64,000 bases of DNA, from assembly GCA_965200555.1 (NCBI GenBank), contig OZ241365.1:920605-984604 (forward strand). Reading direction: 5' to 3'. Every line of letters begins with the position of its first letter. The stretch's first letter is position 1. Under the pieces are notes generated by a model that searched no databases, was not told the origin of the DNA, and saw only the letters and a list, made by a program, of their open reading frames with translations. The stretch is from Dehalococcoidia bacterium. GTDB lineage: Bacteria > Chloroflexota > Dehalococcoidia > UBA2979. Position numbers and translations under genes: made by a program. This document shows, piece after piece, positions 3,688-62,591 of the stretch.

Positions 3688-3750
3688 CCGCCGCCGCGCC
3701 GCCGCAACGCGGGGGCGTGCTACGCTGCGGCGCGAGGGGGCAAGCGGGCG

Positions 3751-20640: not shown

Positions 20641-20718
20641 TCGCGCCCCTCGCCCCGCGGGCCGGGGGTATACTCGCGGGCGCGCCGGCGGCCCGCCCGC
20701 CGGGGATCGGTTCGCGCC
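20641..20718 (+). promoter_or_regulatory. Conserved upstream element U1 (CCTCGCCCCGCGGGCCGGGGGTATACTCGCGGGCGCGCCGGCGGCCCGCCCGCCGGGGATCGGTTCGCGCC-ATG), putative promoter/leader with -10 TATACT at 20669-20674
   Basis: The element repeats nearly identically before each paralog (U2 21796..21871 with TATACT 21832-21837; U3 22925..23002 with TATACT 22953-22958). Confidence 0.45.
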
Positions 20719-21669
20719 ATGCGGTGGCGCTTGGCGTCCTTCGGTCTCGCGTTCCTCGCGATGGCGACCGTTGCCGTCGCGGTCTCCGTGCGCGGCGGCG
20801 GCCCGGCGCAGCCCCTCGTGGCGCCGACCGCGACCGTCGCGCCCGATGTCGCGCCCACCTCCCCGCCGATCCCGCGGGTGGCGCTGGGCCGCTATCTCGA
20901 GGGCGGAGGCACCTACGCCTTCCCCGGCGGCGCCTGGATCTTCGACGTGCCCGAGGGCATGCAGCTGCAGCACCACTGGCGGGCGAGCGGTGGCAGCGCA
21001 ACCTCTTACGGGTTCCTGAATCAGGCGACCGGCGCCTCTTTCAGTTTCAACGTGAAACCGGACAGCGCAGAGTTCCAGCTACAGGCACAGGCCACAATTC
21101 CCGCAGCTCGCGAGCTCGCTTCCGTTTGGCTGGACGCCGTAGAGGCGTCCGTCCGCCGCCCGCCGGGCTTCGTGGAGCCTCCGCCCACGCCCGTCCCGGG
21201 GCCGGGCGCGAACCCCGACGGCGTCCCCTACCTCCGCGGCTACGGCCTCCACGAAGAGGTGTTCGCGGGCGGGCGCACCTACGCCACTCCCGACGACCAG
21301 TGGCTCGTCGACGTGCCGGCCGGGCTCAGCGTCATGTTCCACGAGAATACCCAGGCCATGCCGACCTGCCTGGCACCCTCGACGGCGGCCTCGTGCGGTG
21401 AAGCCGTCGACACCTACGGTTTCGACGCCGTCGGGATACGGTCGAGCGTCTACATCAACAAAACGACGGGCAAGTTTGCTGGACGGAGCGGGGTCGTCAA
21501 CCCGCAGATGGATGCGTTGGCTGCTTCGTTCAAATCGGTTCGCGCCATGCGGTGGCGATGGGCGTCCTTCGGTCTCGCGTTCCTCGCGATGGCGGCCGTT
21601 GCCGTCGCGATCACCGTGCGCGCCGGCGACCCGGCGCAGCCCCTCGCGACGCCGACCGTTCGGTGGTGA
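20719..21669 (+). CDS. Secreted paralog P1 (signal anchor MRWRLASFGLAFLAMATVAVAV + two copies of a GGRTY...DVPxGM module), C-terminally fused in frame to a truncated next unit
   Basis: Read from the track translation. After ...MDALAASFKSV the ORF reads through RAMRWRWASFGLAFLAMAAVAVAITVRAGDPAQPLATPTVRW*, which is the N-terminus of another unit and indicates an unequal-crossover junction. Confidence 0.55.
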   Translation: MRWRLASFGLAFLAMATVAVAVSVRGGGPAQPLVAPTATVAPDVAPTSPPIPRVALGRYLEGGGTYAFPGGAWIFDVPEGMQLQHHWRASGGSATSYGFLNQATGASFSFNVKPDSAEFQLQAQATIPAARELASVWLDAVEASVRRPPGFVEPPPTPVPGPGANPDGVPYLRGYGLHEEVFAGGRTYATPDDQWLVDVPAGLSVMFHENTQAMPTCLAPSTAASCGEAVDTYGFDAVGIRSSVYINKTTGKFAGRSGVVNPQMDALAASFKSVRAMRWRWASFGLAFLAMAAVAVAITVRAGDPAQPLATPTVRW

Positions 21670-21793
21670 AGCCGTCGACACCTACCGTTTCGACGCCGTC
21701 GGGATACGGTCGAGCGTCTACATCAGCAAAACGACGGGCGAGTTTGCTGGACGGAGCGGGGCTGCGCTGGCTGCTTCGTTCAGGAAGCCGTAG
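21661..21793 (+). pseudogene. Orphan C-terminal fragment of a paralog unit (GEAVDTYRFDAVGIRSSVYISKTTGEFAGRSGAALAASFRKP*)
   Basis: Out of frame with P1; it matches the canonical unit C-terminus (...VNSQMDALAASFRKP*). Confidence 0.45.
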
Positions 21794-21795
21794 AA

Positions 21796-21871
21796 ACCGG
21801 CCTCGCCCCGCGGGCCGGGGGTATACTCGCGGGCGCGCCGGCGGCCCGCCCGCCGGGGATCGGTTCGCGCC
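21796..21871 (+). promoter_or_regulatory. Conserved upstream element U2 (TATACT 21832-21837)
   Basis: Near-identical to U1 and U3. Confidence 0.45.
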
Positions 21872-22927
21872 ATGCGGTGGCGCTTGGCGTCCTTCGGTCT
21901 CGCGTTCCTCGCGGTGGCGGCCGTCGCGGTCGCGATCGCCGTGCGCGCCGGCGGCCCGGCGCAGCCCCTCGCGGCGTCGACCGCGACCGTCGCGCCCGAT
22001 GTCGCGCCCACCGCCGCGCCGACGCTCACCCCCGAGACAGCTCCGGCGCCCACCCCCACGCCGATCCCGCAGGTGGAGCCCGGCGACTTCCTCGAGGGCG
22101 GACGCACCTACGCCCTCCCCGGCGGCGCCTGGATCTTCGACGTGCCCGAGGGCATGCGCCTGTGGCACAACGGAGACGAACCGGGGAAGAACCCCGGGGA
22201 CCCGCCGAACGGCTTCGGCTTCATGGACCGCGTGACCGGCTCCCTGATCACCATCTACCTGCGGCCGGACGGGTCCCTCGACTTCTACGGCTTCAACTAC
22301 GGGTCCACTCCCGAGGCCCGCGAGCTCGCGGACGCCTGGCTGCCCGCGATCGAGGCGTCCCTCCGCCGCCCGCCGGGCTTCGTGGAGCCTCCGCCCACGC
22401 CCGCGCCCGTCTTCCCGGGTCCGGGCGCGAACCCCGACGGCGTCCCCTACCTGCGCGACTACGGCCTCCACGACGAGGTGTTCGCGGGCGGGCGCACCTA
22501 CGCCACTCCCGACGACAAGTGGCTCGTCGACGTGCCGGCCGGGCTCAGCGTCATGTTCCACGAGAATACCCAGGCCATGTCGGTCTGCCCGCCGGGCTCG
22601 AGGGCCTCGTGCGGTGAAGCCGTCGACACCTACCTTTTCGACGCCGTCGGGATATGGTCGAGCGTCTACATCAGCAAAACGACGGGCAAGGTCGCTGGAC
22701 GGATCGCTGGACGGAGCGGGGATGTCAACTCGCAGATGGATGCGTTGGCCGCTTCGTTCAGATCGGTTCGCGCCATGCGGTGGCGCCGGGCGTCCTTCGG
22801 TCTCGCGTTCCTCGCGATGGGGGCCGTTGCCGTCGCGATCACCGTGCGCGCCAGCGAGTTTGCTGGACGAAGCGGGGTCGTCAACTCGCAGATGGATGCG
22901 CTGGCTGCTTCGTTCAGGAAGCCGTAG
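21872..22927 (+). CDS. Secreted paralog P2 (most complete copy; signal anchor, PT linker, two GGRTY...DVPxGM modules, C-terminus ...ASFRKP)
   Basis: 351 aa. It contains the in-frame micro-unit insert RAMRWRRASFGLAFLAMGAVAVAITVRA before the canonical C-terminus. Confidence 0.55.
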   Translation: MRWRLASFGLAFLAVAAVAVAIAVRAGGPAQPLAASTATVAPDVAPTAAPTLTPETAPAPTPTPIPQVEPGDFLEGGRTYALPGGAWIFDVPEGMRLWHNGDEPGKNPGDPPNGFGFMDRVTGSLITIYLRPDGSLDFYGFNYGSTPEARELADAWLPAIEASLRRPPGFVEPPPTPAPVFPGPGANPDGVPYLRDYGLHDEVFAGGRTYATPDDKWLVDVPAGLSVMFHENTQAMSVCPPGSRASCGEAVDTYLFDAVGIWSSVYISKTTGKVAGRIAGRSGDVNSQMDALAASFRSVRAMRWRRASFGLAFLAMGAVAVAITVRASEFAGRSGVVNSQMDALAASFRKP

Positions 22928-23002
22928 AACCGGCCTGCCCGCGGGCCGGGGGTATACTCGCGGGCGCGTCGGCGGCCTGCCCGCCGGGAATCGGTTCGCG
23001 CC
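22925..23002 (+). promoter_or_regulatory. Conserved upstream element U3 (TATACT 22953-22958)
   Basis: Near-identical to U1 and U2. Confidence 0.45.
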
Positions 23003-23737
23003 ATGCGGTGGCGCTTGGCGTCCTTCGGTCTCGCGTCCCTCGCGGTGGCGGCCGTCGCGGTCGCGGTCGCCGTGCGCGCCGGCGGCCCGGCGCAGCCCCT
23101 CGCGGCGTCGACCGCGACCGTCGCGCCCGAGGCCGCGCCCACCGTCGCGCCGACGCTCACCCCCGAGACAGATCCGGCGCCCACCCCCACGCCGATCCCG
23201 CAGGTGGAGCCCGACGCCGACCTCGAGGGCGGACGCACCTACGCCCTCGGGGGCGCCTGGATCTTCGACGTGCCCGAGGGCATGCGCCTGTGGCACACCG
23301 GGGGACCGCCGGGCGGCTTCGGCTTCATGGACCGCGTGACCGGTTCCGTGATCACCATCTACCTGCAGCCGGACGGGTCCCTCGACTTCTACGGCTTCAA
23401 CCACGGGTCCACCCCCGAGGAGCGTGAGCTCGCGGACGCCTGGCTGCCCGCGATCGAGGCGTCCGTCCGCCGCCCGCCGGGCTATGTGTACCCTCCGCCC
23501 ACGCCCGCGCCCGTCTTCCCGGGGCCGGGCGCGAACCCCGACGGCGTCCCCTACCTCCGCGACTACGGCTTCCACGAAGAGGTGTTCGAGGGCGGGCGCA
23601 CCTACGCCACTCCCGACGACCAGTGGCTCGTCGACGTGCCGACGGGCATCAGCATCCGCTTGGGCCTTGTGTTGGTTATGGCACATACCCTGCATACCCC
23701 GCACCCGCCCGCCACCGAAGCGTATAAAATTTTCTAA
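23003..23737 (+). pseudogene. Paralog P3, C-terminally disrupted
   Basis: Homology to P1/P2 holds up to ...WLVDVPTGISI and then diverges into a lower-GC segment (about 23650-23830), ending KIF*. The canonical C-terminal motif (YLDMLAASFRR) reappears in another frame (ORF 23424..23981), and further unit fragments extend to about 23960. Confidence 0.5.
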
Positions 23738-44289: not shown

Positions 44290-44392
44290 CCTACACGACG
44301 AACGCGAGTTCGCGCACCCGCGCGAGCGGATGCGCCGGGGTGCTGCGCGGCCCCCGCCCCGCCCTCGGAGGCGGCAGGCCGCGCGCGGCGGC

Positions 44393-45484
44393 TCAGGCCC
44401 CGGCGGCGATGCGCCTCCTCGCGGTCAGCGCGGCGGCGCCGAGGAGCAGCGCCGAGGCGGCGAGCAGGCCAGCCTTCGGCGCGGCGGGGGCGGACGCATC
44501 GGGCGCGGCGAGGCCGGCGTTGCCGGTCGCCGGGGCGCCGGGCGCCGCCGTCGCCGCGCCCGCGCCGGCCTGCGCGGGCAGGACGCCCGGCACGGGGAAG
44601 GTCGCGATGCGCTGCGCCCAGCCGTAGGCCTGGACGATGCCCCCGCGCGCCGAGATCAGCGAGGCGGCGGCCCCGGACAGCGCGGCCTTGCCCTCCTCGA
44701 GGCTGTCCGCCGCGAGCGCGGCCTGCGTCTGCCCGCGCACCCGCAGCGTCCGCGCCTCGGCGATGGTGGCCATGTAGTCCACCTGCGCCGCGAAGACGTC
44801 GATGCCGGGGCCGTGGGCGCCCGCCAGCAGTTCGGTGTGGATCGCGGCCTCCTCCGCCAGCAGCAGCTCGTCGAGGGCGAGCAGCCGCCGGGCGGCTTCG
44901 CGGAAGCCGTCGAGGTCCTCGGCCGCCATCGCCTCGTTCGCCACGCCGATCGCCAGCTGCAGGTCGTCGCGGATCGCGATCAGCAGGCCGGGCCGATCGG
45001 GATCGCCGGGACCGTGCACGTGCGCCCCTTCGGCGAGGCCGTGCGAGATCAGGTGCTGCACGTGGAGCAGCAGCGCCGGGGGGTGGGTGTAGGAGTAGAC
45101 CACCTCCGACGGCTCCGCGCCGTCGTCCGGCACGGGCTCGAGCGAGATCTCGACGGTGTCGTATCCCAGTCCGAGGACGTTCGCTGCGCCGGGGGCGCGC
45201 CAGGCGTGGTCGATGGCGCCAGCCTCGACCGCCATGACGCCGGTGCTGACGCGGGCGCCGGTGGCGCTGTTCACCAGCCAGCCCTCGTACGCCCTGTCCG
45301 CCGGCAGCGGCGCGACGCCGTCGATGTCGTAGACGAGGCCGTCGCCGAGCGCCGTCACGTCGGCGAGCAGGACGAGGCCGACGCCCTCGAAGCGGTGGCG
45401 GTCGGCGCGCGCCGTCCCCGTCGCGAGCGGCGCGAGGAGCAGCAACAGCAGCCCCGCCGCCGCGAGCACCCTGGACCACGTCAT
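44393..45484 (-). CDS. Secreted protein with anti-sigma-K RskA-like C-terminal-type domain and C-terminal hydrophobic anchor
   Basis: Signal peptide MTWSRVLAAAGLLLLLLAPLATGTARA. AYEGWLVNSATGARVSTGVMAVEAG...LGLGYDTVEISLEPVPDDGAEPSEVVYS matches the extracytoplasmic RskA domain pattern (Y.lWli...g..S.G.f.........vTvEP.GGS..PT). The C-terminal LLAASALLLGAAALTARRR forms a hydrophobic anchor. No cytoplasmic anti-sigma domain is present. Confidence 0.5.
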   Translation of the reverse strand: MTWSRVLAAAGLLLLLLAPLATGTARADRHRFEGVGLVLLADVTALGDGLVYDIDGVAPLPADRAYEGWLVNSATGARVSTGVMAVEAGAIDHAWRAPGAANVLGLGYDTVEISLEPVPDDGAEPSEVVYSYTHPPALLLHVQHLISHGLAEGAHVHGPGDPDRPGLLIAIRDDLQLAIGVANEAMAAEDLDGFREAARRLLALDELLLAEEAAIHTELLAGAHGPGIDVFAAQVDYMATIAEARTLRVRGQTQAALAADSLEEGKAALSGAAASLISARGGIVQAYGWAQRIATFPVPGVLPAQAGAGAATAAPGAPATGNAGLAAPDASAPAAPKAGLLAASALLLGAAALTARRRIAAGA

Positions 45485-45534
45485 CGCGCACCTCCCGCCG
45501 CCCGCGGCGATGCTGGACGCCGCCCGCGCGCGCG

Positions 45535-46089
45535 TCAACCGCCGCCCTCCTCGCCGCCCGCGAGCTCGCCGTCCTCGCCGAGGCCGGCGAGCTCGCGGGC
45601 GCGGGCGACGAGGGCCGGCACGCCCGCGATCTCGCCCTCGACGGCGATGTGGGCGCCGCCGCGCGCGACCAGCCGCCAGCGCACGTTGCCGAGCGTCTCC
45701 ACGCGCTCGATGCGTTCGAGGTCGCTCCAGCGCAGTTCGCGCCGCACCTCGCCGCGGTGCAGCGCCAGCGCCGCCTCGCGCGTGAGCGCGATCGCCGTCG
45801 CCGTGCCCCGCCACGTGAACCACACCACCGGCAGCTGCAGCACCAGCACCACGCCGAGGAACGCGCCGAACCCCGTCGCCTCCGCCGATCCCGCAAGGAA
45901 GCCGATCGCGAGGAAGAGCGCGCACCCGATCAGCGGCAGCGCGAACGAGGCGTGGTTCCACCAGTGCGAGAGGTTGGGGTGCGCCGCCACCACCTCGAGG
46001 CCGGACAGCGCCTCGCGATCCTCGCGCCGCAGCGCGGCGAGCGGGCCGGAGGCGGCGGGCGGCGCGTCGCCGGGGCGGTCGCTGGTCAC
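45535..46089 (-). CDS. Membrane protein with bacterial PH (bPH_2/YdbS-like) domain
   Basis: Two TM helices (FALPLIGCALFLAIGFLAG, FGAFLGVVLVLQLPVVWFTW) are followed by a PH-like beta-rich domain. The start is uncertain (GTG at 46089 or ATG at 46167). Confidence 0.45.
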   Translation of the reverse strand: MTSDRPGDAPPAASGPLAALRREDREALSGLEVVAAHPNLSHWWNHASFALPLIGCALFLAIGFLAGSAEATGFGAFLGVVLVLQLPVVWFTWRGTATAIALTREAALALHRGEVRRELRWSDLERIERVETLGNVRWRLVARGGAHIAVEGEIAGVPALVARARELAGLGEDGELAGGEEGGG

Positions 46090-46232
46090 AGCGGCAGGGT
46101 AGCGCCCCGCGGCAGGACGCGGCGAGGCCGCCCGCTCCGGCGGACATCCGCATATTGATCCTCGCATTTGATGCTTCTAGCCTTGCGGGTATGCTCGCGG
46201 GGTGCGTGCGGGCTCGCGGAAGGAGTGGCGCG

Positions 46233-48665
46233 ATGGGTTCGGTGTGGCATCTCGCGCGGAGGCCCCTCGGCCTGCTGCTGACGCTGGCGCTGGCGGTCTC
46301 GCTCGTCGCCGCGTGCGGCGGCGACGACGACGGCGGCGAGCAGCTCAAGCTCGGCTTCCTCGTCGACTTCACCGGCGGCCTCGCCGAGTACGGCGAGTCG
46401 GCGCAGACCGGCATCGACCTCGCGATCCTGCACATCAACGCGGCGGGCGGCGTCAACGGCCAGGACGTGGTCTACGTCACCGGCGACACCCGCGTCGACC
46501 CGACGCAGGCGACCGAGGAGGCGCGCCGCCTCGTCGACGTCGAGGGCGTGCACGCGATCGTCGGCCCGCTGTCGAGCACCGCGACGCTGGCCGTGGCGGA
46601 GAGCGTGACCGGGCCGGGCGGCGTCCCCCAGATCTCGCCGTCGGCGACCTCGCCCGCGCTGACCACGGTGGACGACGACGGCTACCTCTTCCGCACCACC
46701 ATCTCCGACGCCGCGCAGGGCGTGGTGCTCGCCCAGCTCGCCGCCGAGGAGGGCTACGACAACGTCGGCGTGATCCACCGCGACGACGCCTACGGGCAGG
46801 GCCTCGCCGAGGCCTTCGCCGCCGCCTTCGGCGGCCGCAGCACCCTCGCCGCCTACCCCGACGCCGGACAGGCCTCGTACCTCTCCGAGCTGCAGGCGGC
46901 GGCGGCCAACGGCGCGGACGTGCTGCTCGCCATCGGCTTCGCCGAGACCGAGATCTTCGTCCGCGAGGCGCTGGAGCAGGGCCTCTTCTCGGCGTTCCTG
47001 TTCTGCGACGGCAACAAGAGCCAGGACCTGATCGACCAGCTCGGGGCCGACAACCTCGAGGGCTTCAAGGGCACGGCCCCGGGCAGCGACCCCGAGGCGC
47101 CCTCGACGATGGCGTGGAACGCGGCCTACGTGGCCGAGTACGGCGCGCCGCCCGCGCTGCCGTTCGTGCGCGAGACCTACGACGCGGTGGTCGCGCTCGC
47201 GCTCGCGGCCGAGGCCGCCGGCTCGACCGGCGGCGCCGCGATCCGCGACCAGCTGGCGCGCATCGGCGGCCCCGGCGGCGCTGCCTTCCTCGCCGACGCC
47301 GACGGCGTGCGCGCCGCCCTCGAGGCCGTGCGCGCGGGCGACGACATCGACTTCGTCGGCGCCGCCACCTCGGTGGACTGGGACGGCGCCGGCGACGTGC
47401 CCTCCGGCTTCGTCGAGATCTGGGAGTACCGCGGCGGCGAGCCGGTCACGCTCGACACCGTGCCGTTCGACCTCGCGGCGCCGGCCGCCGCGGCGACGCC
47501 CGCGGCGACCGAGGAGCCGGGCGAGCAGCTGCGGATCGGCTTCCTCTCCGACTTCACCGGCGCGCTCTCCGAGTACGGCGAGGGCACGCTGGCGGGCGCG
47601 CGGCTGGCGATCGCCCACCTCAACGCCGCGGGCGGCGTCAACGGCCAGGACGTGACGCTCGTCACCGGCGACACCCGCGTCGAGACCGTGCAGGGCGTCG
47701 AGGAGGCGCGCCGCCTCGTCGACGTCGAGGGCGTGCACGCCATCGCCGGGCCGCTGTCGAGCAACGTCACCCTTGCCGTCTCGGCGTCGGTGACGACGCC
47801 GGGCGGCATCCCCCAGATCTCGCCCTCGGCGACCTCGCCCGCGCTGACCCAGGCCGAGGACGACGGCTACCTCTTCCGCACCACCGGCTCCGACTCGGTG
47901 CAGGGCGTGGTGCTGGCCGGCCTCGCCAAGAGCGAGGGCCACGACAACGTCGGCGTGATCTACCGCGACGACGCCTGGGGCCAGGGCCTCTCCGAGGTCT
48001 TCGCCGCCAACTTCGACGGCACGGCCACGCTCGCCTCCTACAACGCCAACGGCCAGCCCAGCTACATCGCCGAGCTGCGGCAGGCCGCCGGCGAGGGCGC
48101 GACGGCGCTGGTGGCGATGGGCTTCGCGGAGACCGAGGTGTTCCTGCGCGAGGCGATCGAGAACGGCCTGTTCACGACCTTCATCCTCACCGACGGCAAC
48201 AAGAGCGAGGAACTGATCGAGCAGATCGGCGCGGACTACCTCGAAGGCACGGTCGGCACCGCCCCGAGCAGCAACCCCGACGCGCCCTCGACGGTGGCGT
48301 GGGACGCGGCGTGGCTCGTCGAGTACGGCGACACGCCGGCGCTGCCGTTCGTGCGCGAGGCGTACGACGCGGTGATCGCGATCGGCCTCGCCGCCGAGGC
48401 CGCCGGCTCGACCGACGGCGCCGCCATCCGCGACGCGCTCCCGCGCATCGCCGGCCCGCCCGGCGACGCCTACATCGCCGGCCCGATCGGCGTGGCCTCC
48501 GCCATGCAGGCCCTGCGCGCGGGCGAGGACATCAACTACGAGGGCGCCGCCACCCCGATCGACTGGGACGGCGCCGGCGACGTGACCTCCGGCTTCATGG
48601 AGATCTACGGCGTCCGCGACGGCGCCCTCGTGACCGTCGAGGTGCGCGCCTTCACCCTCGAGTAG
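46233..48665 (+). CDS. Fused tandem double substrate-binding lipoprotein of a branched-chain amino acid (Liv/type-1 PBP) ABC transporter
   Basis: The lipobox is LVAAC with a GGAAGGAG RBS. There are two complete SBP units (about residues 30-415 and 430-810), each beginning EQL(K/R)(L/I)GFL.DFTG.L.EYGE...IAHLNAAGGVNGQDV...GDTRV...EEARRLVDVEGVHAI.GPLSS. A TATGCT -10-like element lies at 46187-46192 inside the GCGGGTATGCTCGCGG motif. Confidence 0.75.
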   Translation: MGSVWHLARRPLGLLLTLALAVSLVAACGGDDDGGEQLKLGFLVDFTGGLAEYGESAQTGIDLAILHINAAGGVNGQDVVYVTGDTRVDPTQATEEARRLVDVEGVHAIVGPLSSTATLAVAESVTGPGGVPQISPSATSPALTTVDDDGYLFRTTISDAAQGVVLAQLAAEEGYDNVGVIHRDDAYGQGLAEAFAAAFGGRSTLAAYPDAGQASYLSELQAAAANGADVLLAIGFAETEIFVREALEQGLFSAFLFCDGNKSQDLIDQLGADNLEGFKGTAPGSDPEAPSTMAWNAAYVAEYGAPPALPFVRETYDAVVALALAAEAAGSTGGAAIRDQLARIGGPGGAAFLADADGVRAALEAVRAGDDIDFVGAATSVDWDGAGDVPSGFVEIWEYRGGEPVTLDTVPFDLAAPAAAATPAATEEPGEQLRIGFLSDFTGALSEYGEGTLAGARLAIAHLNAAGGVNGQDVTLVTGDTRVETVQGVEEARRLVDVEGVHAIAGPLSSNVTLAVSASVTTPGGIPQISPSATSPALTQAEDDGYLFRTTGSDSVQGVVLAGLAKSEGHDNVGVIYRDDAWGQGLSEVFAANFDGTATLASYNANGQPSYIAELRQAAGEGATALVAMGFAETEVFLREAIENGLFTTFILTDGNKSEELIEQIGADYLEGTVGTAPSSNPDAPSTVAWDAAWLVEYGDTPALPFVREAYDAVIAIGLAAEAAGSTDGAAIRDALPRIAGPPGDAYIAGPIGVASAMQALRAGEDINYEGAATPIDWDGAGDVTSGFMEIYGVRDGALVTVEVRAFTLE

Positions 48666-48688
48666 CGGAGCGCGCGCCGCCGCACCGC

Positions 48689-48716
48689 GAGGGGCGGCCT
48701 CCGGGCCGCCCCCTCC
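48689..48716 (+). terminator. GC-rich hairpin downstream of the SBP gene (GAGGGGCGGCC-tccg-GGCCGCCCC(C)TC), candidate intrinsic terminator without U-tract
   Basis: An 11-bp stem with one bulge and a 4-nt loop, sitting 24 nt after the stop. Confidence 0.3.
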
Positions 48717-48770
48717 GCGTCCGCGCGCGGAGCGGGCGCGCCTCGCCGGGACCGGGTGTAGGATGCCGCC

Positions 48771-50453
48771 GTGACGCGGAAGCTGGCGCTGGCGGGACTG
48801 GTCGTCGCCGTGCTCGTCGCGGGCGCGGCGTCCGCGCTGGCGCAGGACGCAGGGTCCGAGGTGCGGATCGCCGCGCGGCGGCTCGCCGACGGGCGCGTCG
48901 AGTTCGCGCTGCAGCCCCGCTCCGGCGGCGGCTGGGGCGCGCGCGTGCTGCCGTCCAGCCGCTACTTCCCCGCGAACGCCGCCGTCGGCCGCTGGCTCAG
49001 CTCCTCGCCGGTGGACGCCGGCGGTGTCGAGGTGCGGATCAGCGCACAACGGCTCGCCGACGGGCGCGTCGAGTTCGCGCTGCAGCCGCGCGCGGGCGGC
49101 GGCTGGGGCGAGCGCGTCCTGCCGTCCAGCCGCTACTTCCCCGCGAACGCCGCCGCCGGCCGCTGGCTCAGCTCCTCGCCGGTGGCGCTCGGCGGCGCGG
49201 CGGCGATGACGGGCGACGATCCCGCCTCGTGCGCCCTCGCCGACCATATCGACCGCGTGAGGGCCGCGACGTTCCAGGTGCGGACCGCCTCCGGCGCCGG
49301 TACGGCCTTCTACATCGGCAACGACGAGTGGCTGACGAACCACCACGTCGTCGAGGACGCGACGCGGGCCGAGCTGGTCCACGGCGGCACTCGCCTCTCC
49401 GCCGCCGTCGCGGGCAGCCTGCCGGGGTACGACCTCGCGCTGCTGAGGGCGCGGCCTCCGTCCTCGGTGCGCCCGCTCCGCCTCGCCGCCGCGAGGCCGG
49501 CGGTGCTGGCGAGCGTGGCGGTGGTGGGGTTCCCGCCCCCCGTCTCGGGCACCCCGTCGGCCACCCGCGGGGTGGTGTCGAAGCACGCCCCGTTCTCCCA
49601 ATTCCCGGACCAGCTCGACGGCAGCGGCGTCGTGCTGCAGACCGACGCCGAGATCAACCCCGGCAACAGCGGCGGCCCCATCGTCGACGGCTGCGGTACG
49701 GTGGCCGCCGTCGCCACGTTCAAGCGGTCCTCGTCGCAGGACGGACGCGACGTCGACGGCATCGGCTTCGGCGTCGCCGCCGAGACGGTCGCCGCGCGGC
49801 TCGCCCAGCTGCGCTCTACCGAGCATGTGGCGGGAGGCGCGCCGCAAGCCGCCGCCGAGGCCGCCTTCAATACCTGTATGGCGAACTGGGGCGACACCTA
49901 TGGCAACCAGATTGGGGCCACTCTCGCCGCCATCCGCACTGTTGAGGACATCGAGGACGAGGTTACCGGGTGGGGCGTACCCACCTCTTACATTACCGCC
50001 ATCTACGCCGACCCCAGCATCATTCCCCCCGGTGGTCTCTTCGTAACCCCGGGGTTTCCCCTCGGCACTGATAGCCCAGGCGTTTTCAGAATCTTCGGTG
50101 GCAACTTTGACAACCTGCGGGCGCTGATCCAAGGGGCCACTGGGGTTGCGATTATTCGCGACGACTCGATCGGTTTCGCTACAGCGGCGACTCGTCGCGA
50201 GACGCTCTCTGTGGACAGGTTCTTCTTTCGGCTGGATATTATTCGCGAGACTTGGCATTACTCCATCAGCCCGTGGTTCGCTCCTGCCGATCAGGGGCCG
50301 TTGAGTCTGGACTTCACAGCTGCGAAGAACTCTCTGGAGGCTAACAGGCTTCGGCTGGTGGGGCTGCAGGCGGCTGACCGAGACAACTGGGAACGCTACT
50401 GCGCGTCGGCGGCTGGACAAACTGTTGGGCCGGACGAGCATACCCCCCGATAG
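48771..50453 (+). CDS. Secreted trypsin-like (S1/chymotrypsin family) serine protease with two N-terminal ~52-aa tandem repeats and a C-terminal extension encoded by lower-GC DNA
   Basis: Signal peptide MTRKLALAGLVVAVLVAGAASALA. The repeats are EVRIAARRLADGRVEFALQPRSGGGWGARVLPSSRYFPANAAVGRWLSSSPV, present twice. The catalytic His is in TAFYIGNDEWLTNHHVV and the Ser in NPGNSGGPIVD. From about 49860 the coding DNA drops to roughly 58% GC. Confidence 0.7.
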   Translation: MTRKLALAGLVVAVLVAGAASALAQDAGSEVRIAARRLADGRVEFALQPRSGGGWGARVLPSSRYFPANAAVGRWLSSSPVDAGGVEVRISAQRLADGRVEFALQPRAGGGWGERVLPSSRYFPANAAAGRWLSSSPVALGGAAAMTGDDPASCALADHIDRVRAATFQVRTASGAGTAFYIGNDEWLTNHHVVEDATRAELVHGGTRLSAAVAGSLPGYDLALLRARPPSSVRPLRLAAARPAVLASVAVVGFPPPVSGTPSATRGVVSKHAPFSQFPDQLDGSGVVLQTDAEINPGNSGGPIVDGCGTVAAVATFKRSSSQDGRDVDGIGFGVAAETVAARLAQLRSTEHVAGGAPQAAAEAAFNTCMANWGDTYGNQIGATLAAIRTVEDIEDEVTGWGVPTSYITAIYADPSIIPPGGLFVTPGFPLGTDSPGVFRIFGGNFDNLRALIQGATGVAIIRDDSIGFATAATRRETLSVDRFFFRLDIIRETWHYSISPWFAPADQGPLSLDFTAAKNSLEANRLRLVGLQAADRDNWERYCASAAGQTVGPDEHTPR

Positions 50454-50682
50454 TGAAGGCTCGTGCCCCTCGAACTTCAGCGCCGTCGTGACCGAACCCG
50501 AGCGTTAGCCGCGCCGATCCCTCGCGCGAGCCTCGATGCGTCGCGCGGCGTCAGCCGGCGGGGGCGAGCGGGGCCGCCGCCGGGTAGAACACAGCGGATG
50601 CTCGCCCGACAGCGGGGGCATCAAAGGCACGCCAGCTCCCAACGGCCGCTGGTTCCACTTCATGCACATCCTGCTGTGGCAG

Positions 50683-51786
50683 CTAGGTCAATCCCAAAAG
50701 GAACTCGCGAGGCTGGCGCACACGCTTAATCCTGAAGTTGGCGACACGTACCCCATCATCAGCAAGGTACGTTGTCTTGCGAGACCCTTCTCGCACTGCA
50801 GTGATGTAATCGTTGAACCGCCTGATCATCACATCCCTTTTCTCCCAATCAAGAGAATCCCACCAAGTGGGAGCAATACAGAGACTTTCGGACGCTTCGA
50901 TCAAGAAACGAATCAAGGCATCAGGCATGTCTTCCCGTCCTATGCTCAGTAGCGACTTGGCGAATCGCACCGGGGCTGTTGATCCACGCAACCAGGACAG
51001 AATAACCGCACCACTTCCGGGAGTTGCTATACTGGAAACAAGCAGTTGCTCCATGGGGATATCGACTTGCATCTGATTCTGTAGCAAATTTCCTTTAAAA
51101 TCGCAGTCTGGCATCCATGCGAAGCTCGCGAGTATCGGCGGATGTCGGTCCGTTTCCAACACGAGAGACCGGATTTCATCGAAACGGCTCATCTGCAGGT
51201 AACGATCCAAATCCGCTTTGACCCTTTGCAAATCCGCACGCCCGAGACGTATGCCTATTCTCTGGTGGTTCAAAAACTCTTGAGTCTCCTTTTGTCCCGC
51301 TGGGGGCATCCCGCGGTCAGCGTTGAGTTTAGCCCACTGGATGTGTTGTTCTGCTCCGATCTTGAAGTACAGCTCACGACTGGCCGCCCTGAAAGCGAAG
51401 AGGAAGTTCTGCTGATCCGAAAAATCGATGGTATTCCCTTTCTCGATGGGATCGAACAACGCATCATGCGCTTGGCAGAATCCTCTGAAGATAGATGCTT
51501 GGCTGACACCGAACAACCTCGGAAGCACTTGGTGGTCACTCACTGCGCGCCTGAAGTAATAGACATGTCCACCCTCAGCGATAGCGGACAACATGGCGAG
51601 CTGCACACCGTGGGCGCGTATGGCGGGGCCGCAGCCTGTCGGCGCATCCGGGTGCAAGCATTCCTCGCGCCCGACGAAGTAAGTTTGTTCGGCTCGGTGC
51701 ATCTCAGAAAGACTCAAGGGGGGTTGATCTTCGCGCCCGCGATGGCACTGAGCGAACTCGACGCCAGAGTCACACCAGCACAGCAT
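50683..51786 (-). CDS. SEC-C metal-binding motif protein of unknown function on a ~50% GC island
   Basis: The start is chosen at MLCWCDSGVEFAQCH (C-x-C-x-S-G-x5-C-H, the SecA C-terminal SEC-C motif). The rest of the 367 aa has no recognised domain. The track ORF extends upstream to 51963 in high-GC DNA that overlaps the livM 3' end. Confidence 0.5.
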   Translation of the reverse strand: MLCWCDSGVEFAQCHRGREDQPPLSLSEMHRAEQTYFVGREECLHPDAPTGCGPAIRAHGVQLAMLSAIAEGGHVYYFRRAVSDHQVLPRLFGVSQASIFRGFCQAHDALFDPIEKGNTIDFSDQQNFLFAFRAASRELYFKIGAEQHIQWAKLNADRGMPPAGQKETQEFLNHQRIGIRLGRADLQRVKADLDRYLQMSRFDEIRSLVLETDRHPPILASFAWMPDCDFKGNLLQNQMQVDIPMEQLLVSSIATPGSGAVILSWLRGSTAPVRFAKSLLSIGREDMPDALIRFLIEASESLCIAPTWWDSLDWEKRDVMIRRFNDYITAVREGSRKTTYLADDGVRVANFRIKRVRQPREFLLGLT

Positions 51787-51898
51787 ATCCCGGCGGCCCC
51801 TACCTGCGCTCTGGATGGTAGCACTCCACGTTGCCGTCTCGCAACTGCAGGTCGATACACCCCGACTGATATCGCCGCCCGCGCACGGCACGCGGCGG

Positions 51899-52990
51899 TC
51901 AGCCGGCGAGGGCGCGGAGGCGCGCGCGCAGCGCGGCGAGGGGCGAGCCGGGGCCGCCTCCACCGCCGCCTCCCTCGCCGCGCGGGGCGAAGCGGCTGAC
52001 GATCGCGCGCTCGGGGACGAGGCCCTGCGGGCGCGCCAGCACGAACAGCACGATCAGCAGCCCGATCGCCACCCGCCGCAGCACGAACACGCGCGTCCCG
52101 AGGAAGTCCGGCAGGCTCTCCTGGAACAGCGGCAGCCCGAACCACACGAACGCCACCACCAGCGCCCCCACGACGGCGCCGCGGTTGTTGCCGCTGCCGC
52201 CCACGATCACCATCGTCCAGACGAGGAACGTCATCAGGTTCTCGAACGAGTCGGGCGCGATCGTGCCGTAGCGGTGCGCCCAGATCGCGCCCGCCAGCCC
52301 CATCAGCGCCCCGCCCAGCACGAAGCTCTGCATCCGGTAGCTGGCCGTCCACTTGCCGACCGAGCGCGCGGTGTCCTCGTTCTCGCGGATCGCGCGCAGC
52401 ACGCGGCCCCACGGCGAGGCCGTCGCCCCCCGCACCGCGACGAACACGGCGGCCAGCGTCAGCAGCGTGATCGCCAGCAGCACGAGGTCGTAGTCGATGC
52501 CGCGCTCGCCGGCGGCGGCCTCGAACGGCCTCGGGATGCCGTTGAGGCCGCGCGCGCGGTTGACGAGGCCCTCCTGCGTGTTGGCGATGCTCCGCAGGAT
52601 CGAGGTGATGCCGATCGTCGCGATCGCGAGGAAGTCGTCGCGCAGCCGCAGCGTCGGCAGCCCCACCAGCAGCGCGAGCGCGGCGCCGGCGGCCATGCCG
52701 CCCAGCCAGCCGATCGGGATCGGCAGCTCGTACCCGCCGACGTAGCTCTCGAACTGGCCGGGCGGGTCGAGCGTCAGCAGCGCGCTGGCGTAGGCGCCGA
52801 CGGCGAGGTAGGCGATCACGCCGAAGTTGACCGTGCCGGTGTAGCCCCACTGCACGTTCAGCGCGAGCGTGGCGATGCCGAGGATCGCCGCCGTCGTGAG
52901 GAACCCGACGGTCCAGTTCGCGCCGCCGGTCACGGAGATCTGCAGCGCCCCGTCGAGCGGCAGTCCCGCCAGCCCCGCCAGCGCCTCCAC
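51899..52990 (-). CDS. livM: Branched-chain amino acid ABC transporter permease (LivM-like)
   Basis: It is polytopic and has the LivM pattern ...NFGVIAYLAVGAY...; the C-terminus is Gly-rich. Confidence 0.8.
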   Translation of the reverse strand: MEALAGLAGLPLDGALQISVTGGANWTVGFLTTAAILGIATLALNVQWGYTGTVNFGVIAYLAVGAYASALLTLDPPGQFESYVGGYELPIPIGWLGGMAAGAALALLVGLPTLRLRDDFLAIATIGITSILRSIANTQEGLVNRARGLNGIPRPFEAAAGERGIDYDLVLLAITLLTLAAVFVAVRGATASPWGRVLRAIRENEDTARSVGKWTASYRMQSFVLGGALMGLAGAIWAHRYGTIAPDSFENLMTFLVWTMVIVGGSGNNRGAVVGALVVAFVWFGLPLFQESLPDFLGTRVFVLRRVAIGLLIVLFVLARPQGLVPERAIVSRFAPRGEGGGGGGGPGSPLAALRARLRALAG

Positions 52991-60675: not shown

Positions 60676-60773
60676 GCCCGCATTCTACGCCCGCCGCGCC
60701 GTCGCGCGAGCCGCCCGCCGACGCCGCGCCTCGCAGCCCTCGATACGCCTCGAGGCGCGGCGCTACGCCGGGC

Positions 60774-60908
60774 CGGGGCCGAGCAGCGCGGCGGCGAGGA
60801 AGCCGACGGCGGCCTCGCGCACGTGCGGGGGCGCGTCGGCGTGGCCGCCGGGGTTGGCGAGCAGGCGCTTGTCGGCGGAGCCGATCGCGTCGTAGAGGGC
60901 GAGCGCGT
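60774..60908. repeat. 135-bp perfect direct repeat (copy A) of the 3' end of the alpha/beta-hydrolase gene; copy B at 61671..61805
   Basis: Identical strings from CGGGGCCGAGCAGCGCGGCGGCGAGGAAGCC... to ...GTCGTAGAGGGCGAGCGCGT at both sites. Together they flank a 762-bp lower-GC insert (60909..61670). Confidence 0.85.
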
Positions 60909-60922
60909 GGCGTCAGGCTGCC

Positions 60923-61570
60923 CTAAGCGCCCTTCAGGAAGGTCACCGTCACCTTGCCCTTGCTGCGGATACCGCGACGGCCCGCGAGGACGCTCAACCC
61001 GCCGGTCAGGATCAGCCGCCCGGCGTGGATGTGGCTCCCTTGCGTATCCTGCCCCTCGATCCGGTACCCGTTCCTGAGGAGTACGCCCGCTTCGTTCTCG
61101 TAACGCTCGATACCCTTGTCATCGGAGTCGTACTGCCGAACGACCACCGGCTTCGTGTAGCTGCTGGTGATCCGCCCCAGGTCATAAGCGCTGAGTCCGC
61201 CGGGCTGGCCGCCCTCGGCCAGTACCTCGTCGATCAGGCGCTGGTGGGCCGCGCGGTCGAGCGACTGCCGCAGGGTGGATTGCCGTGGATTGCTGGGGCG
61301 CACTGCGATGATGATCAGCCAGAGCACCAGCACGGCGAAGACCAGCCAGAAGACTGGCCAGAAGAAGGGTTCCAGCACGTCCGTGATGGTACGCGCTTCG
61401 GCGGTTCGCTCCGCGGGAGGCCCGAAACAGTCGTCGCGCGCCTCGCACGCTTGCCGAGCCCGCTCAAGCTCTGCAGCGTCCTGCGTCCGATCCTCTGCGG
61501 GCTGCTGTGCACACGCGATCATGAGCAAGGCAATCCACACCAGCGCCCCGGCCAGCAGCCGTCCGTTCAT
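60923..61570 (-). CDS. Lipoprotein-like membrane protein of unknown function (cassette gene), chimeric: contains a 64-nt near-identical copy of the atpF 3' end
   Basis: ATG at 61568-61570 preceded by a GGAAGGAAG RBS. The signal/lipobox is MNGRLLAGALVWIALLMIAC, and there is a second TM helix FFWPVFWLVFAVLVLWLIIIAV. The segment [20 protein letters not shown] is identical to the AtpF C-terminus; the DNA at 61207..61270 versus atpF 28819..28882 has 1 mismatch. The C-terminal ~90 aa is unrecognised. Confidence 0.5.
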   Translation of the reverse strand: MNGRLLAGALVWIALLMIACAQQPAEDRTQDAAELERARQACEARDDCFGPPAERTAEARTITDVLEPFFWPVFWLVFAVLVLWLIIIAVRPSNPRQSTLRQSLDRAAHQRLIDEVLAEGGQPGGLSAYDLGRITSSYTKPVVVRQYDSDDKGIERYENEAGVLLRNGYRIEGQDTQGSHIHAGRLILTGGLSVLAGRRGIRSKGKVTVTFLKGA

Positions 61571-61659
61571 CGGCGTGCTTCCTTCCGGGAACCTGCTCGC
61601 CGCTCCGCGCACCCCGCTGGCCGGGGCGAACTATACACCTCGCCTCACGGCGAGCGGCG

Positions 61660-62400
61660 CTACGGCGGATCGGGGCCGAGCAGCGCGGCGGCGAGGAAGC
61701 CGACGGCGGCCTCGCGCACGTGCGGGGGCGCGTCGGCGTGGCCGCCGGGGTTGGCGAGCAGGCGCTTGTCGGCGGAGCCGATCGCGTCGTAGAGGGCGAG
61801 CGCGTCCGCGCGCGGGAACAGCTCGTCGTCCCACTGCATCACGAACAGCACGGGGCAGCGCAGCCGCGGCGCGTCGGCGGCGAGGCGCGCGTAGAGGCCG
61901 GCCCCGGCGCCCCCGCCGCCGGACGACAGCCCGCACAGCCCGAGCACCGCCGCGCGCGGCCGCCCGTCGGCGGCGACGAACGGCAGCCCGAACATCGTGC
62001 CCATCGAGACGCCGCCGTAGGCGACGCGGGAGCCGTCGATCGCCTCGAGCGCGGCGAGGGCGTCGAGCGTCGCGCGCCAGTCGGCCGCCATCGAGTCGGC
62101 GGCGGCCTCGCCGTACCCGGGTTCCGCGGCGCCGGGGGCGGGGGCGCGGTCGCCGTGGAACGGGCCGTCGATGGCGGCGGCGGCGATGCCCCTCGCGGCG
62201 TAGGCGAGGGCGTAGGCGGTGCGGCTCTCGTCCCGCTTGTGGCCGGCGCCGCCGTGGCCGAGCAGCACCAGCGGCGCGGGCGTCCTCGCGGCGGCGGGCG
62301 TCCACAGCACGCCGGGCACGGTCGCGCCGCCGCGCGGCACGCCGAAGCGCCGCTCGGTTGCGGCGCCGCGATCCTCGGCCTCGCCGATCCACTCCAGCAC
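61660..62400 (-). CDS. Alpha/beta hydrolase (dienelactone hydrolase-like)
   Basis: GVSMGTMFG (nucleophile elbow GxSxG), a C-terminal ...GGHADAP catalytic His region, and a GTG start preceded by AGGAGGatcgAGGAGG. Confidence 0.7.
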   Translation of the reverse strand: MLEWIGEAEDRGAATERRFGVPRGGATVPGVLWTPAAARTPAPLVLLGHGGAGHKRDESRTAYALAYAARGIAAAAIDGPFHGDRAPAPGAAEPGYGEAAADSMAADWRATLDALAALEAIDGSRVAYGGVSMGTMFGLPFVAADGRPRAAVLGLCGLSSGGGGAGAGLYARLAADAPRLRCPVLFVMQWDDELFPRADALALYDAIGSADKRLLANPGGHADAPPHVREAAVGFLAAALLGPDPP

Positions 62401-62591
62401 GCCGCCTCCTCGATCCTCCTCGATCGCCGCGCCTCCCGCGCCGCGCGCCCCTCGGGTTGCGCGCGACGGCGCGGGAGCCTGTATGATGCCGCGCACCGCG
62501 GGCGTGCGCGCGCGCGCCGGCGCGGGTATGATGGCGCGCCGCGAGGCGGAGCGCCGCCGCTGCGGGCGGGGGCGCGGGAAAGGGCCTGACG

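Follow-up and report, generated by a model that had tools for sequence, protein, structure and literature searches.

The window analysed here is a 64,000-nt stretch of a high-GC Dehalococcoidia chromosome, and the locus of interest lies within it between two convergent amino-acid-transporter genes, livM and livK. On the minus strand is livM (51899-52990), which encodes a branched-chain amino-acid ABC permease (Pfam BPD_transp_2, E = 9.6e-42). On the plus strand is the gene for a secreted S1C serine protease, the native part of which (codons 1-353, 48771-49829) comprises a signal peptide, two tandem repeats of ~56 aa (48857-49024 and 49028-49195, 92% identical), and a trypsin-like domain (Pfam Trypsin_2 at aa 177-314, E = 4e-25). 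An additional 207-aa C-terminal domain (codons 354-560 plus stop, 49830-50453) completes the protease. Between livM and the protease gene, on the minus strand, is an ORF (50683-51786) for a 367-aa protein with the N terminus MLCWCDSGVEFAQCH, a SEC-C zinc motif followed by an uncharacterised body. The ATG start of this SEC-C gene is supported by one of its alleles, L166, which has an in-frame stop four codons upstream. Its 5′ leader (51787-51878, minus strand) carries the SD-like sequence GGTAGGGG upstream of the ATG, and no sigma-70-like promoter was found in this leader; since the gene is co-oriented with livM, read-through from the liv operon could possibly transcribe it. On the other side, a 3′ tail (50584-50682, minus strand) runs from the SEC-C stop to a distal repeat and is partly unalignable with the sister strains, the alignment with sister strain L001 picking up again only at 50645.

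Analysis of base composition showed that both GC and GC3 collapse between 49.83 and 51.89 kb and nowhere else around it, with a GC content of 49 to 62% compared to ~75% in the surroundings. In 200-nt windows, the GC content was 0.72 to 0.82 in the flanks on both sides, 0.58 to 0.66 at 49.8-50.4 kb, 0.70 to 0.72 at 50.4-50.7 kb, 0.49 to 0.535 at 50.7-51.6 kb, and 0.62 to 0.65 at 51.5-51.9 kb. In 300-nt windows, the mean over the 64 kb was 0.747 (sd 0.054), and the minimum of the dip, 0.49, was the deepest in the 64 kb, more than 4 sd under the mean. The GC3 values were 0.98 to 0.99 for livM, livH, and livK (0.986 for livM) and 96 to 99% for host genes, compared to 0.603 for the SEC-C gene. Within the protease, GC3 was host-like (0.958) over codons 1-353 and 0.705 over codons 354-560. 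The first-pass annotation had described a single island of foreign composition. The windowed GC and GC3 values bear out the foreign composition; however, the segment is not one unit but the product of at least two separate events. The older event is the insertion of the SEC-C gene, and the other is the replacement of ~675 bp, from 49826 to ~50500, spanning the protease tail. The higher-GC spacer between the two low-GC parts is the displaced livM end.

The 3′ end of livM is present twice. The proximal functional copy, which is the true livM 3′ end (51879-51958, minus strand), includes the stop codon (51899-51901) and ~20 nt downstream. The distal copy (50531-50583, minus strand) is degenerate and consists of ~30 nt of pre-stop sequence, a TGA pseudo-stop (50551-50553), and 20 nt of post-stop sequence, with an internal deletion of 27 to 28 nt relative to livM. 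Judged from the window alone, this copy is borderline, its local alignment score of 50 being at the ~98th to 99th percentile of the GC-rich background, and the proof that it is real comes from comparison with a sister strain. A 28-nt probe taken from the true livM end of L001, covering the stop and downstream sequence (CCGGCTGACGCCGCGCGACGCCTCGAGG), matches 50531-50558 on the minus strand with one mismatch, whereas the expected number of matches was 0.00 (100 shuffles), which upholds the earlier claim of a flanking livM duplicate. At the corresponding position, the distal copy of the sister strains is longer (86% identity over 44 nt ungapped, ~64 nt with gaps).

A second cassette with the same architecture, as the first-pass annotation had suggested, lies at 60.9 kb. 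Here, the distal duplicate of the 3′ end of an alpha/beta-hydrolase gene (60746-60908, minus strand), including the stop and ~19 nt past it, is followed by a single-gene cassette (60909-61640, minus strand) and the proximal functional copy, which is the true hydrolase 3′ end (61641-61805, minus strand; hydrolase gene 61660-62496, Pfam Hydrolase_4, E = 1.9e-7). The cassette holds a 229-aa ORF (60923-61612; GC3 0.83) for a lipoprotein-like/TM protein with no family assigned and no match in Pfam, PHROG, or PADLOC. The two copies form a repeat of 152 to 165 nt and are 96 to 98% identical to each other and also to the single copy in the sister strain, hence the repeat is host DNA. Among the assemblies compared, this cassette was seen in the window only. 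L001 supplies the empty site, and the difference between the filled and the empty site is exactly one repeat plus the insert.

The SEC-C insertion is common to four sister assemblies, with alleles that are 77 to 81% identical at the amino acid level. Values of dN/dS among three alleles, 0.28 to 0.39, point to purifying selection on the gene. In family-level relatives, in which LivM is ~80% identical, livM directly abuts livK, and there is neither a protease nor a SEC-C gene. This argues that the SEC-C gene was acquired. An ancestral origin would have left the segment in syntenic position throughout the relatives; instead, the SEC-C gene is syntenic in the closest strains only, and the protease tail is conserved in none. 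One might also ask whether the segment is an assembly artefact, such as two sequences joined into a chimera or a strain bubble that was collapsed, because the source is evidently a lineage known from metagenome-assembled genomes, repeats of ~150 nt are within the k-mer range of assemblers, and the 60.9-kb cassette is confined to the window. This is highly improbable given that livM, the SEC-C gene, and the protease gene are arranged alike in five further assemblies that are independent and come from different samples (L001, L002, L003, L166/L167, and L174), the livM repeats are diverged rather than exact, and the reading frames are unbroken and evolve under purifying selection.

A common insertion mechanism for the two cassettes, which the first-pass annotation considered plausible, is still no more than plausible. 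On the one hand, in both cassettes the ORF is co-oriented, the start lies 19 to 20 nt beyond the host stop, and the distal repeat extends over the stop plus these ~20 nt. On the other hand, no recombinase ORF was found inside either cassette, no tRNA or tmRNA target was found at either, and no significant target motif is shared between them. The likeness of the post-stop sequences is weak (p ~0.012 with the distal copy in the window, p ~0.10 with the ancestral empty site), and the repeats are unlike in sequence and in length, ~55 to 75 nt for livM and 152 to 165 nt for the hydrolase. Genomic islands that target tRNA or tmRNA genes integrate into gene 3′ ends, regenerate them, and leave a direct repeat, and actinomycete integrative elements and the ssrA islands of Dehalococcoides are further 3′-end integrators. 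As in such islands, direct repeats derived from the host 3′ end bracket compositionally foreign DNA and the host gene is intact. Unlike in them, the targets are protein coding (livM and the hydrolase gene), the inserts are 0.7 to 1.3 kb with one ORF and no integrase, and the repeats differ between the two sites.

Two explanations for this architecture can be considered. First, both cassettes may be small nonautonomous integrative elements moved by a site-specific recombinase whose gene lies in another part of the genome. They would insert ~20 nt past the host stop and carry a duplicate of the host 3′ end that serves as the attachment site, the repeats then being attL and attR. Besides the common architecture and the exact filled and empty sites at 60.9 kb, this would agree with SEC-C alleles that are unameliorated, showing no drift to the high GC of the host (W>S 83 versus S>W 115), and far more diverged than their flanks (dS of 0.3 to 0.4 compared to 0.02), as if variants had been repeatedly delivered to one site. 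However, we consider it unlikely, since both cassettes lack a recombinase ORF and an RNA gene target, a convincing likeness between the repeats or the post-stop sequences is missing, the stretch of 135 nt that is identical between the two hydrolase copies suggests DNA of host origin and not a foreign attP, and distant homologues of the SEC-C gene have no flanking repeats of the host-gene-end type. Second, the repeats may be recombination scars rather than parts of a dedicated element, the recipient's own 3′ end having been left as a partial duplicate. This could occur when DNA of a related strain carrying the host gene plus an accessory gene recombines through the host gene as a homologous anchor and is joined illegitimately at the other end, or when a single Campbell-type crossover integrates a small circle on which the host 3′ end is present. 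The host origin of the hydrolase repeat agrees with this, and the distal livM copy in the window retains the ancestral stop and downstream sequence of the L001 proximal copy, as a displaced original end would. In addition, the locus is a mosaic, with a SEC-C 3′ end that is 94 to 100% identical to L001 and a gene middle that is ~80% identical, and the spot is plastic, L166 having a deleted PD40 remnant and L174 having no distal livM copy. Such scars are a better prospect than a dedicated element but still a tentative one, because it requires donors from this same high-GC lineage, which is not easily reconciled with the unameliorated GC content of 54% and the lack of an AT-to-GC bias, and because two independent events ending 19 to 20 nt past a stop would be a coincidence if the mechanism were nonspecific.

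The SEC-C protein itself could be placed in a family. The SEC-C motif that the first-pass annotation had recognized at its start is present, with a Pfam E value of 7.5e-4 and a score of 19.8 bits, just below the gathering cutoff of 20.4 bits, and 8 of 11 relatives show the motif clearly (best E = 4.9e-11). The body, previously called unrecognizable, proved to be identifiable. BLASTP matched the protein to the lactococcal protein Rugutis with E = 3e-22 over 325 aa at 23% identity, hhalign of the SEC-C family profile with Rugutis gave 99.95%, and a second Lactococcus lactis homologue likewise matches the family. The Rugutis sequence compared was L171:3980-5059 from plasmid pUCCL633A (359 aa); the paper prints no sequence, and its pUCCL633_059 was equated with WP_137016746.1 by plasmid name, the 359-aa length, and annotation. 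The motifs AHxIQ, GFCxxHD, PIE, and ENxxIxPxxW are kept between the two proteins, and a Cys/His/Asp cluster is strictly conserved (C43, C52, H59 in AH(T/S)(I/V)Q, and C104, H107, and D108 in GFCxxHD). The protein is thus a full-length, though distant, Rugutis homologue. The two also resemble each other in size (367 and 359 aa), in the N-terminal zinc motif, in a confidently predicted fold without a PDB counterpart, and in being stand-alone genes on mobile or accessory DNA. They differ in that Rugutis is on a lactococcal plasmid among IS elements whereas the gene in the window is on a chromosome, directly behind a housekeeping transporter operon. Rugutis is a single-gene antiphage system that acts after DNA injection with an Abi-like phenotype (Grafakou et al., Nucleic Acids Res 2024, PMC11381338). 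[quoted passage not shown] Antiphage activity and the terminase trigger have been reported in Lactococcus only, and the gene in the window is a candidate known from its sequence.

The Rugutis-like family is large (>5,000 clusters) and mobile, with members in defence islands, on plasmids, and on contigs of prophage or viral origin. For instance, a homologue in L005 adjoins CTD9/MC5/AAA_23 and a Gabija-like pair, one on a Salmonella plasmid is within a P4-like island with an AAA+DUF4435 pair, one in Vibrio is beside Abi and an ATPase+helicase pair, and those on lactococcal plasmids are flanked by IS elements. Homologues are also carried by 46 IMG/VR contigs, some near the contig ends. The co-occurring partner genes that the first-pass annotation had proposed to look for were not found, as no partner is kept across these contexts. 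Defence hotspots are known in mobile elements and between core genes, such as P4-like satellites and the "moron" loci at prophage ends. The locus in the window is similar in having strain-variable content between near-identical core flanks (LivM is 99% identical to that of L001 at the amino acid level), and the placement of family members in the P4-like island and near viral contig ends is a further likeness. It is different in that it occupies an intergenic gap within a transporter operon on the chromosome, lacks a satellite or prophage backbone, and holds only one defence-type gene. The neighbours of this gene are transport genes and the protease, with no other defence genes.

The protease shows a different kind of variation. 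Its first 353 residues are 93% identical to those of the L001 protease; the homology then ends (at 49825 in the DNA), and this is exactly the end of the catalytic domain. The tail beyond is an open reading frame with a coding-type order of GC3>GC1>GC2, but it has no match in Pfam, PHROG, or IMG/VR, and is shared by 0 of 120 protease relatives; a single-sequence AF2 prediction reached a pLDDT of 33.6, too low to be informative. Elsewhere, the nearest relatives have a PD40 propeller and most of the family another domain. The tail is therefore a graft that replaced the native C-terminal domain, and the earlier suggestion of a foreign C terminus is confirmed by the break at codon 353, the lower GC3, and the absence of the tail from all relatives. 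C-terminal replacement of toxin tips occurs in Rhs/CDI-type polymorphic secreted proteins. The protease is alike in its conserved N-terminal body, homology that ends abruptly at the border of a domain, the alternative tails in strains and relatives, and the lower GC of the new tails. It is unlike them in that no toxin domain is recognised, the tails being a PD40 propeller, Cys-rich/FN3-like, or orphan; in that no co-oriented immunity gene accompanies it; and in that the body is an S1C protease and not an Rhs/CdiA scaffold.

Because both variable parts adjoin between near-identical flanks and the protease combines a conserved N terminus with a tail that varies among strains, the protease and the SEC-C protein could be imagined as one functional module, with 49.83-51.89 kb exchanged as a unit, for example a pair resembling polymorphic toxin and immunity proteins or a protease-coupled defence system. 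The protease also weakly matches the protease domains of the defence proteins RT-Protease_XI and Avs1b. However, these matches span the generic trypsin fold only, no protease was found beside Rugutis homologues in the neighbourhoods examined, and Rugutis works as a single gene. Furthermore, the two genes are convergent and form no operon, they differ in GC content (62% for the tail, 54% for the SEC-C gene), and their histories differ, the tail being unalignable with the sister strains and the SEC-C gene 84 to 86% identical at the nucleotide level. The signal peptide and the extracellular-type tails of the relatives also place the action of the protease outside the cytoplasm. A joint module is thus disfavoured and very unlikely. 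Most likely, the protease is an extracytoplasmic enzyme unrelated to the SEC-C protein, with a modular substrate-binding tail.

Taken together, we estimate a probability of about 75% that livM and livK, which converge, flank an accessory spot that varies among strains and holds an acquired Rugutis-family gene with a Rugutis-like action and a tail-swapped S1C protease. The Rugutis-family gene would have been horizontally acquired and installed ~20 nt past the livM stop in the orientation of the liv operon, leaving behind a duplicate of the last ~30 to 60 nt of livM plus ~20 nt downstream. The native C-terminal domain of the protease was replaced at codon 353 by 207 foreign orphan codons. By analogy with Rugutis, the SEC-C protein would act alone after entry of the phage DNA, and its activation may depend, directly or indirectly, on the phage large terminase. 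It would then halt the growth of the infected cell or kill it, resulting in abortive infection, although the effector step is a guess; the conserved Cys/His/Asp cluster would most plausibly form its metal or catalytic center. The unusual composition, the kinship with Rugutis, the stand-alone gene, the mobile family, the flanking repeats, and the exchanged protease domain are directly supported by the sequences, whereas an antiphage role in this host, activation by the terminase, and the function of the conserved residues are inferred. The gene itself is a new but ordinary addition to a known family, and what is notable is the duplicated host-gene end that accompanies it without a recombinase.

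The deepest GC dip of the window was found at 49.8 to 51.9 kb, where GC falls to a minimum of 49% compared to a window mean of 74.7% (sd 5.4% in 300-nt windows). From 49.83 to 50.45 kb the GC content is 58 to 66%. It is back up to 70 to 72% between 50.45 and 50.65 kb, drops to 49 to 54% from 50.7 to 51.6 kb, and then stays at 62 to 65% until 51.89 kb. The contrast is sharper in third-codon-position GC (GC3) than in GC: the GC3 values are 0.98 to 0.99 for livM, livH, and livK, 0.958 for codons 1 to 353 of the S1C protease gene, 0.705 for its codons 354 to 560, and 0.603 for the SEC-C gene. The low-GC island claimed here by the first-pass annotation is thus real, and its gene content (S1C protease, 367-aa SEC-C protein, and livM) was recovered by ORF and Pfam analysis. 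The gene order is a tandem-fused LivK (46155-48665, plus strand), the secreted S1C protease (48771-50453, plus strand), the 367-aa SEC-C-motif protein (50683-51786, minus strand), and livM (51899-52990, minus strand), plus livH. In one SEC-C allele, an in-frame stop lies 4 codons upstream of the ATG, which confirms this codon as the start. A promoter and terminator scan showed nothing above background level, and Rfam gave no match in 48.5 to 53 kb.

Some other repeats and low-GC segments were apparent in the window. In LivK, two complete Peripla_BP_6 domains for ligand binding are fused in tandem, with an internal repeat (46318-47439 and 47502-48624) that is 81% identical; some relatives carry two separate livK genes instead. 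The "first" low-GC island, at 2776-4740, consists of two paralogous ORFs in tandem (303 and 329 aa), the second of which falls to 57 to 68% GC, and the 226-nt repeats there (2890-3107 and 3914-4139) are due to the paralogy of the two ORFs and not to a flanking duplication. A direct-repeat array at 20648-23653 (77 to 97% identical, 125 to 820 nt) suggests genes or domains duplicated in tandem.

Further analysis of the SEC-C protein pointed to Rugutis, a 359-aa single-gene antiphage protein of lactococci (PMC11381338). First, BLASTP aligned the window protein to Rugutis (pUCCL633_059, found as WP_137016746.1 on plasmid pUCCL633A) over 325 of its 367 aa at 23% identity (E value of 3e-22). Second, the family profile matched Rugutis by hhalign with a probability of 99.95% and an E value of 2e-38 over 319 columns. 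Third, the invariant motifs of the family are common to the window protein and Rugutis. At the N terminus (aa 2 to 15), the SEC-C motif PF02810 scored slightly below the cutoff in the window protein (E value of 7.5e-4, 19.8 bits compared to 20.4 bits). This metal-binding motif, CxC...C[H/C], is present at the N terminus of 8 of the 11 aligned relatives (best E value of 4.9e-11), and in the PDB the family profile matches zinc peptides from the C terminus of SecA (E value of 2.4e-4). The fold was predicted confidently, with no PDB match beyond the SEC-C motif. Nor did Pfam, NCBIfam, PADLOC, or PHROGs recognize anything in the body of the protein beyond that motif. The PADLOC negative carries no weight because Rugutis itself has no body match in PADLOC-DB v2.0. 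Exact-sequence look-ups of the window LivM, the SEC-C protein, a 229-aa ORF near 60.9 kb, P0161, and P0164 returned no record.

The SEC-C gene is therefore assigned to the Rugutis family, of which it is a new and distant member, with a putative function that follows from this homology. As one more member of a known antiphage family, the central gene is an ordinary result. Rugutis acts after DNA injection and shows abortive-infection-like behavior (PMC11381338). In phage c2 mutants that escape it, the changes lie in the large terminase, within its ATPase domain. Expression of this terminase is toxic to Rugutis cells, but so is expression of the mutant form (PMC12184496). Both properties, post-injection Abi-like protection and activation by the large terminase, have been described for no family member other than the one from lactococci (PMC11381338, PMC12184496).

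A word-index search, which found 10 SEC-C homologues, suggested that the family is rare, but an exhaustive profile search refuted this by finding 5,446 family clusters, 2,043 of them at an E value of ≤1e-30. Nearly all of these clusters consist of full-length proteins of about 370 aa. On annotated plasmids, the members are labeled "SEC-C domain-containing protein," and members were also found on 46 IMG/VR viral contigs. Other members lie next to an AAA+DUF4435 pair in a P4-like island, near an Abi protein plus an ATPase+helicase pair, and on a contig (L005) that carries CTD9/MC5/AAA_23 plus a Gabija-like pair. The family is thus carried by plasmids, viral contigs, and defense-rich neighborhoods, that is, by accessory or mobile DNA. 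Its organization is that of a single gene, as the neighbors vary in every context examined and no partner is conserved. Repeats were looked for around the distant Rugutis homologues and none were found.

The closest homologues of the SEC-C protein (77 to 79% aa identity) are on metagenomic contigs of sister strains in which the gene order is unchanged. A good example is contig L001, which is 97.5% identical in nucleotide sequence to the window at 44352-49825, unalignable at 49826-50644, about 84 to 86% identical in the SEC-C gene, and 97 to 100% identical from the livM stop codon onward; the two LivM proteins are 99% identical. Synonymous divergence (dS) is 0.016 to 0.023 in livM, livH, and livK, 0.08 in the protease N terminus, and 0.31 to 0.42 among three SEC-C alleles (window 50683-51786, L001:10001-11098, and L166:121-1230). 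The dN/dS of these three alleles, 0.28 to 0.39, means that all are under purifying selection. When substitutions were polarized on the three allele branches, there were 83 W>S changes compared to 115 S>W changes, hence no AT-to-GC bias. This absence, despite a host GC3 of 96 to 99%, argues that the SEC-C alleles diverged outside this host's compositional regime, and it rules out an old resident gene that is slowly ameliorating. It suggests that the alleles were imported or exchanged from a lower-GC pool, which is not a full explanation.

Comparison with more distant Dehalococcoidia showed how the gap between livM and livK varies. In family-level MAGs (LivM about 80% identical), livM is directly convergent on livK, with neither the protease nor the SEC-C gene between them. 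In one of these MAGs, from another Dehalococcoidia species (L017:7131-7826), the gap holds a different, co-oriented ORF for a 231-aa membrane protein; its GC is like that of the host, and no repeat flanks it. The gap is thus a spot for accessory genes, perhaps a recurrent one, and both the SEC-C gene and the protease were added to it in a lineage-specific manner. Strains also differ greatly in the spacer that separates the protease from the SEC-C gene. In L166:1-1680, only the last ~50 nt of a PD40 protease tail are left, joined to a different upstream gene, and in L174:6082-6252 the PD40 tail is shorter (591-aa protein) and the distal livM repeat is absent.

The first-pass annotation had also proposed that the C terminus of the protease is a foreign graft, and the comparison with L001 agreed with this. 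The two proteases are 93% identical up to residue 353, where all similarity is lost and GC3 drops from 0.958 to 0.705. Among 120 relatives of the protease N terminus, five tail classes were found: a Cys-rich plus FN3-like tail of about 205 aa (71 relatives), two smaller classes (13 and 6 relatives), a PD40 beta-propeller (10 relatives; PD40 E value of 4.8e-69), and the window's own tail, which is a singleton. The PD40 class holds all the nearest relatives of the window protease (91 to 95% identity), and one relative of 79% identity that carries the common tail is at a different locus. The catalytic part has a higher GC content than either the PD40 tail or the window tail. The window tail has an open frame and a coding-like GC distribution over codon positions, and it showed no relatives among the 120 protease relatives or in IMG/VR, Pfam, NCBIfam, PADLOC, or PHROGs. 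That no relative shares it rests on the 120-relative survey and the IMG/VR search and not on the word-index search, which gave no match with the 207-aa tail yet missed the identical 207 aa in P0161 and is thus unreliable as a negative. In JGI metagenomes, the protease N terminus had no close relatives (≤39% identity), and a single-sequence AF2 model of the tail (pLDDT of 33.6) was not used. Taken together, these results support a tail of foreign origin that was grafted on at the domain boundary.

The N-terminal part of the protease has features of its own. Two tandem units of about 56 aa at 48857-49195, EVRI(A/S)A(R/Q)RLADGRVEFALQPR...WLSSSPV, are 92% identical in nucleotide sequence, and such units are kept across the Chloroflexota protease family. 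The protease of sister-strain contig L002 has about 100 bp extra in its N-terminal region compared to the window and L001 (L002:7486-7585, a lower-GC region), and its gene call starts at an internal Met.

Close relatives that share a conserved body but differ in their C-terminal domains resemble polymorphic toxins with a displaced C-terminal tip. However, the tails here (PD40, Cys-rich/FN3-like, or an orphan without matches) include no recognizable toxin domain, and there is no co-oriented immunity gene; the next gene is convergent and is the Rugutis homologue. Nothing indicates that the protease and the SEC-C protein cooperate. The two genes are convergent and unlike in both composition and history, and no protease is found next to Rugutis homologues in other genomes.

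A degenerate copy of the livM 3' end was claimed to lie on the far side of the SEC-C gene. In the window alone, this copy (50531-50583, minus strand) was borderline, scoring at about the 98th to 99th percentile of background alignment scores for this GC-rich DNA. The comparison with L001 settled the claim: the true livM end of L001 plus 20 nt downstream, CCGGCTGACGCCGCGCGACGCCTCGAGG, matches window positions 50531-50558 (minus strand) with one mismatch, where 0.00 such matches are expected. The window's distal copy consists of about 30 nt before the pseudo-stop and 20 nt after it, with an internal deletion of 27 to 28 nt, and L001 and L166 have longer distal copies at the same place that decayed differently.

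The cassette at 60.8 kb, which was said to share this architecture, does so. Repeats of the 3' end of an alpha/beta-hydrolase gene (60746-60908 and 61641-61805; 152 to 165 nt, 96 to 98% identical) bracket 732 bp whose sole ORF, co-oriented, encodes a 229-aa lipoprotein-like/TM protein (60923-61612, minus strand); Pfam, NCBIfam, PADLOC, and PHROGs recognized no family in it. L001 has the empty site, and this second cassette is recent. Overall, the first-pass interpretation was essentially right. In both cassettes, 19 to 20 nt separate the host stop codon from the start of the insert, and the distal repeat takes in this stop codon and the 19 to 20 nt after it. A motif shared after both stop codons (P of ~0.012 for one copy and ~0.10, not significant, for the ancestral site) was rejected as evidence.

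Direct repeats of the target gene's 3' end flank the insert at both livM and the hydrolase gene, as in integrase-borne 3'-end genomic islands. Unlike such islands, the inserts carry no recombinase: none was found in 50584-51878 or 60909-61640, and their sole ORFs, the SEC-C gene and the 229-aa ORF, have no recombinase domain. The expected tRNA or tmRNA target was not found either, as ARAGORN detected no tRNA or tmRNA gene in the whole 64 kb. What remains odd are the two single-gene cassettes, which lack a recombinase and are each marked by a duplicate of a host 3' end, the deep, unameliorated allelic divergence at one fixed site, and the strain-level swapping of protease domains; a new mechanism behind them is not yet established. 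It is conceivable, at roughly one chance in seven, that high-GC Dehalococcoidia capture single accessory genes as promoter-less, recombinase-less mini-cassettes about 20 nt past a host stop codon, with the last 55 to 165 nt of the host gene duplicated and the alleles repeatedly resupplied from a lower-GC pool. Such resupply, if true, would explain why the SEC-C alleles are 15 to 20 times more diverged than their flanks at synonymous sites and have not drifted toward the 98% GC3 of the host. In-frame addition of new C-terminal domains to host proteins might be a further outcome of this process.

These findings suggest that an unannotated gene from a very GC-rich, uncultured lineage of Dehalococcoidia probably functions in phage defense of the abortive-infection type, and they take the experimentally defined Rugutis family far beyond the Firmicutes. 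The conserved Cys, His, and Asp residues are obvious targets for mutagenesis. Nature has also set up a clean experiment at this locus, in which near-identical strains differ only in the allele of the putative defense gene and in the protease tail domain, and 10 kb away the second cassette offers both filled and empty sites. If the architecture of 3'-end duplication without a recombinase is systematic, it would represent a gene-capture route that has not yet been described.
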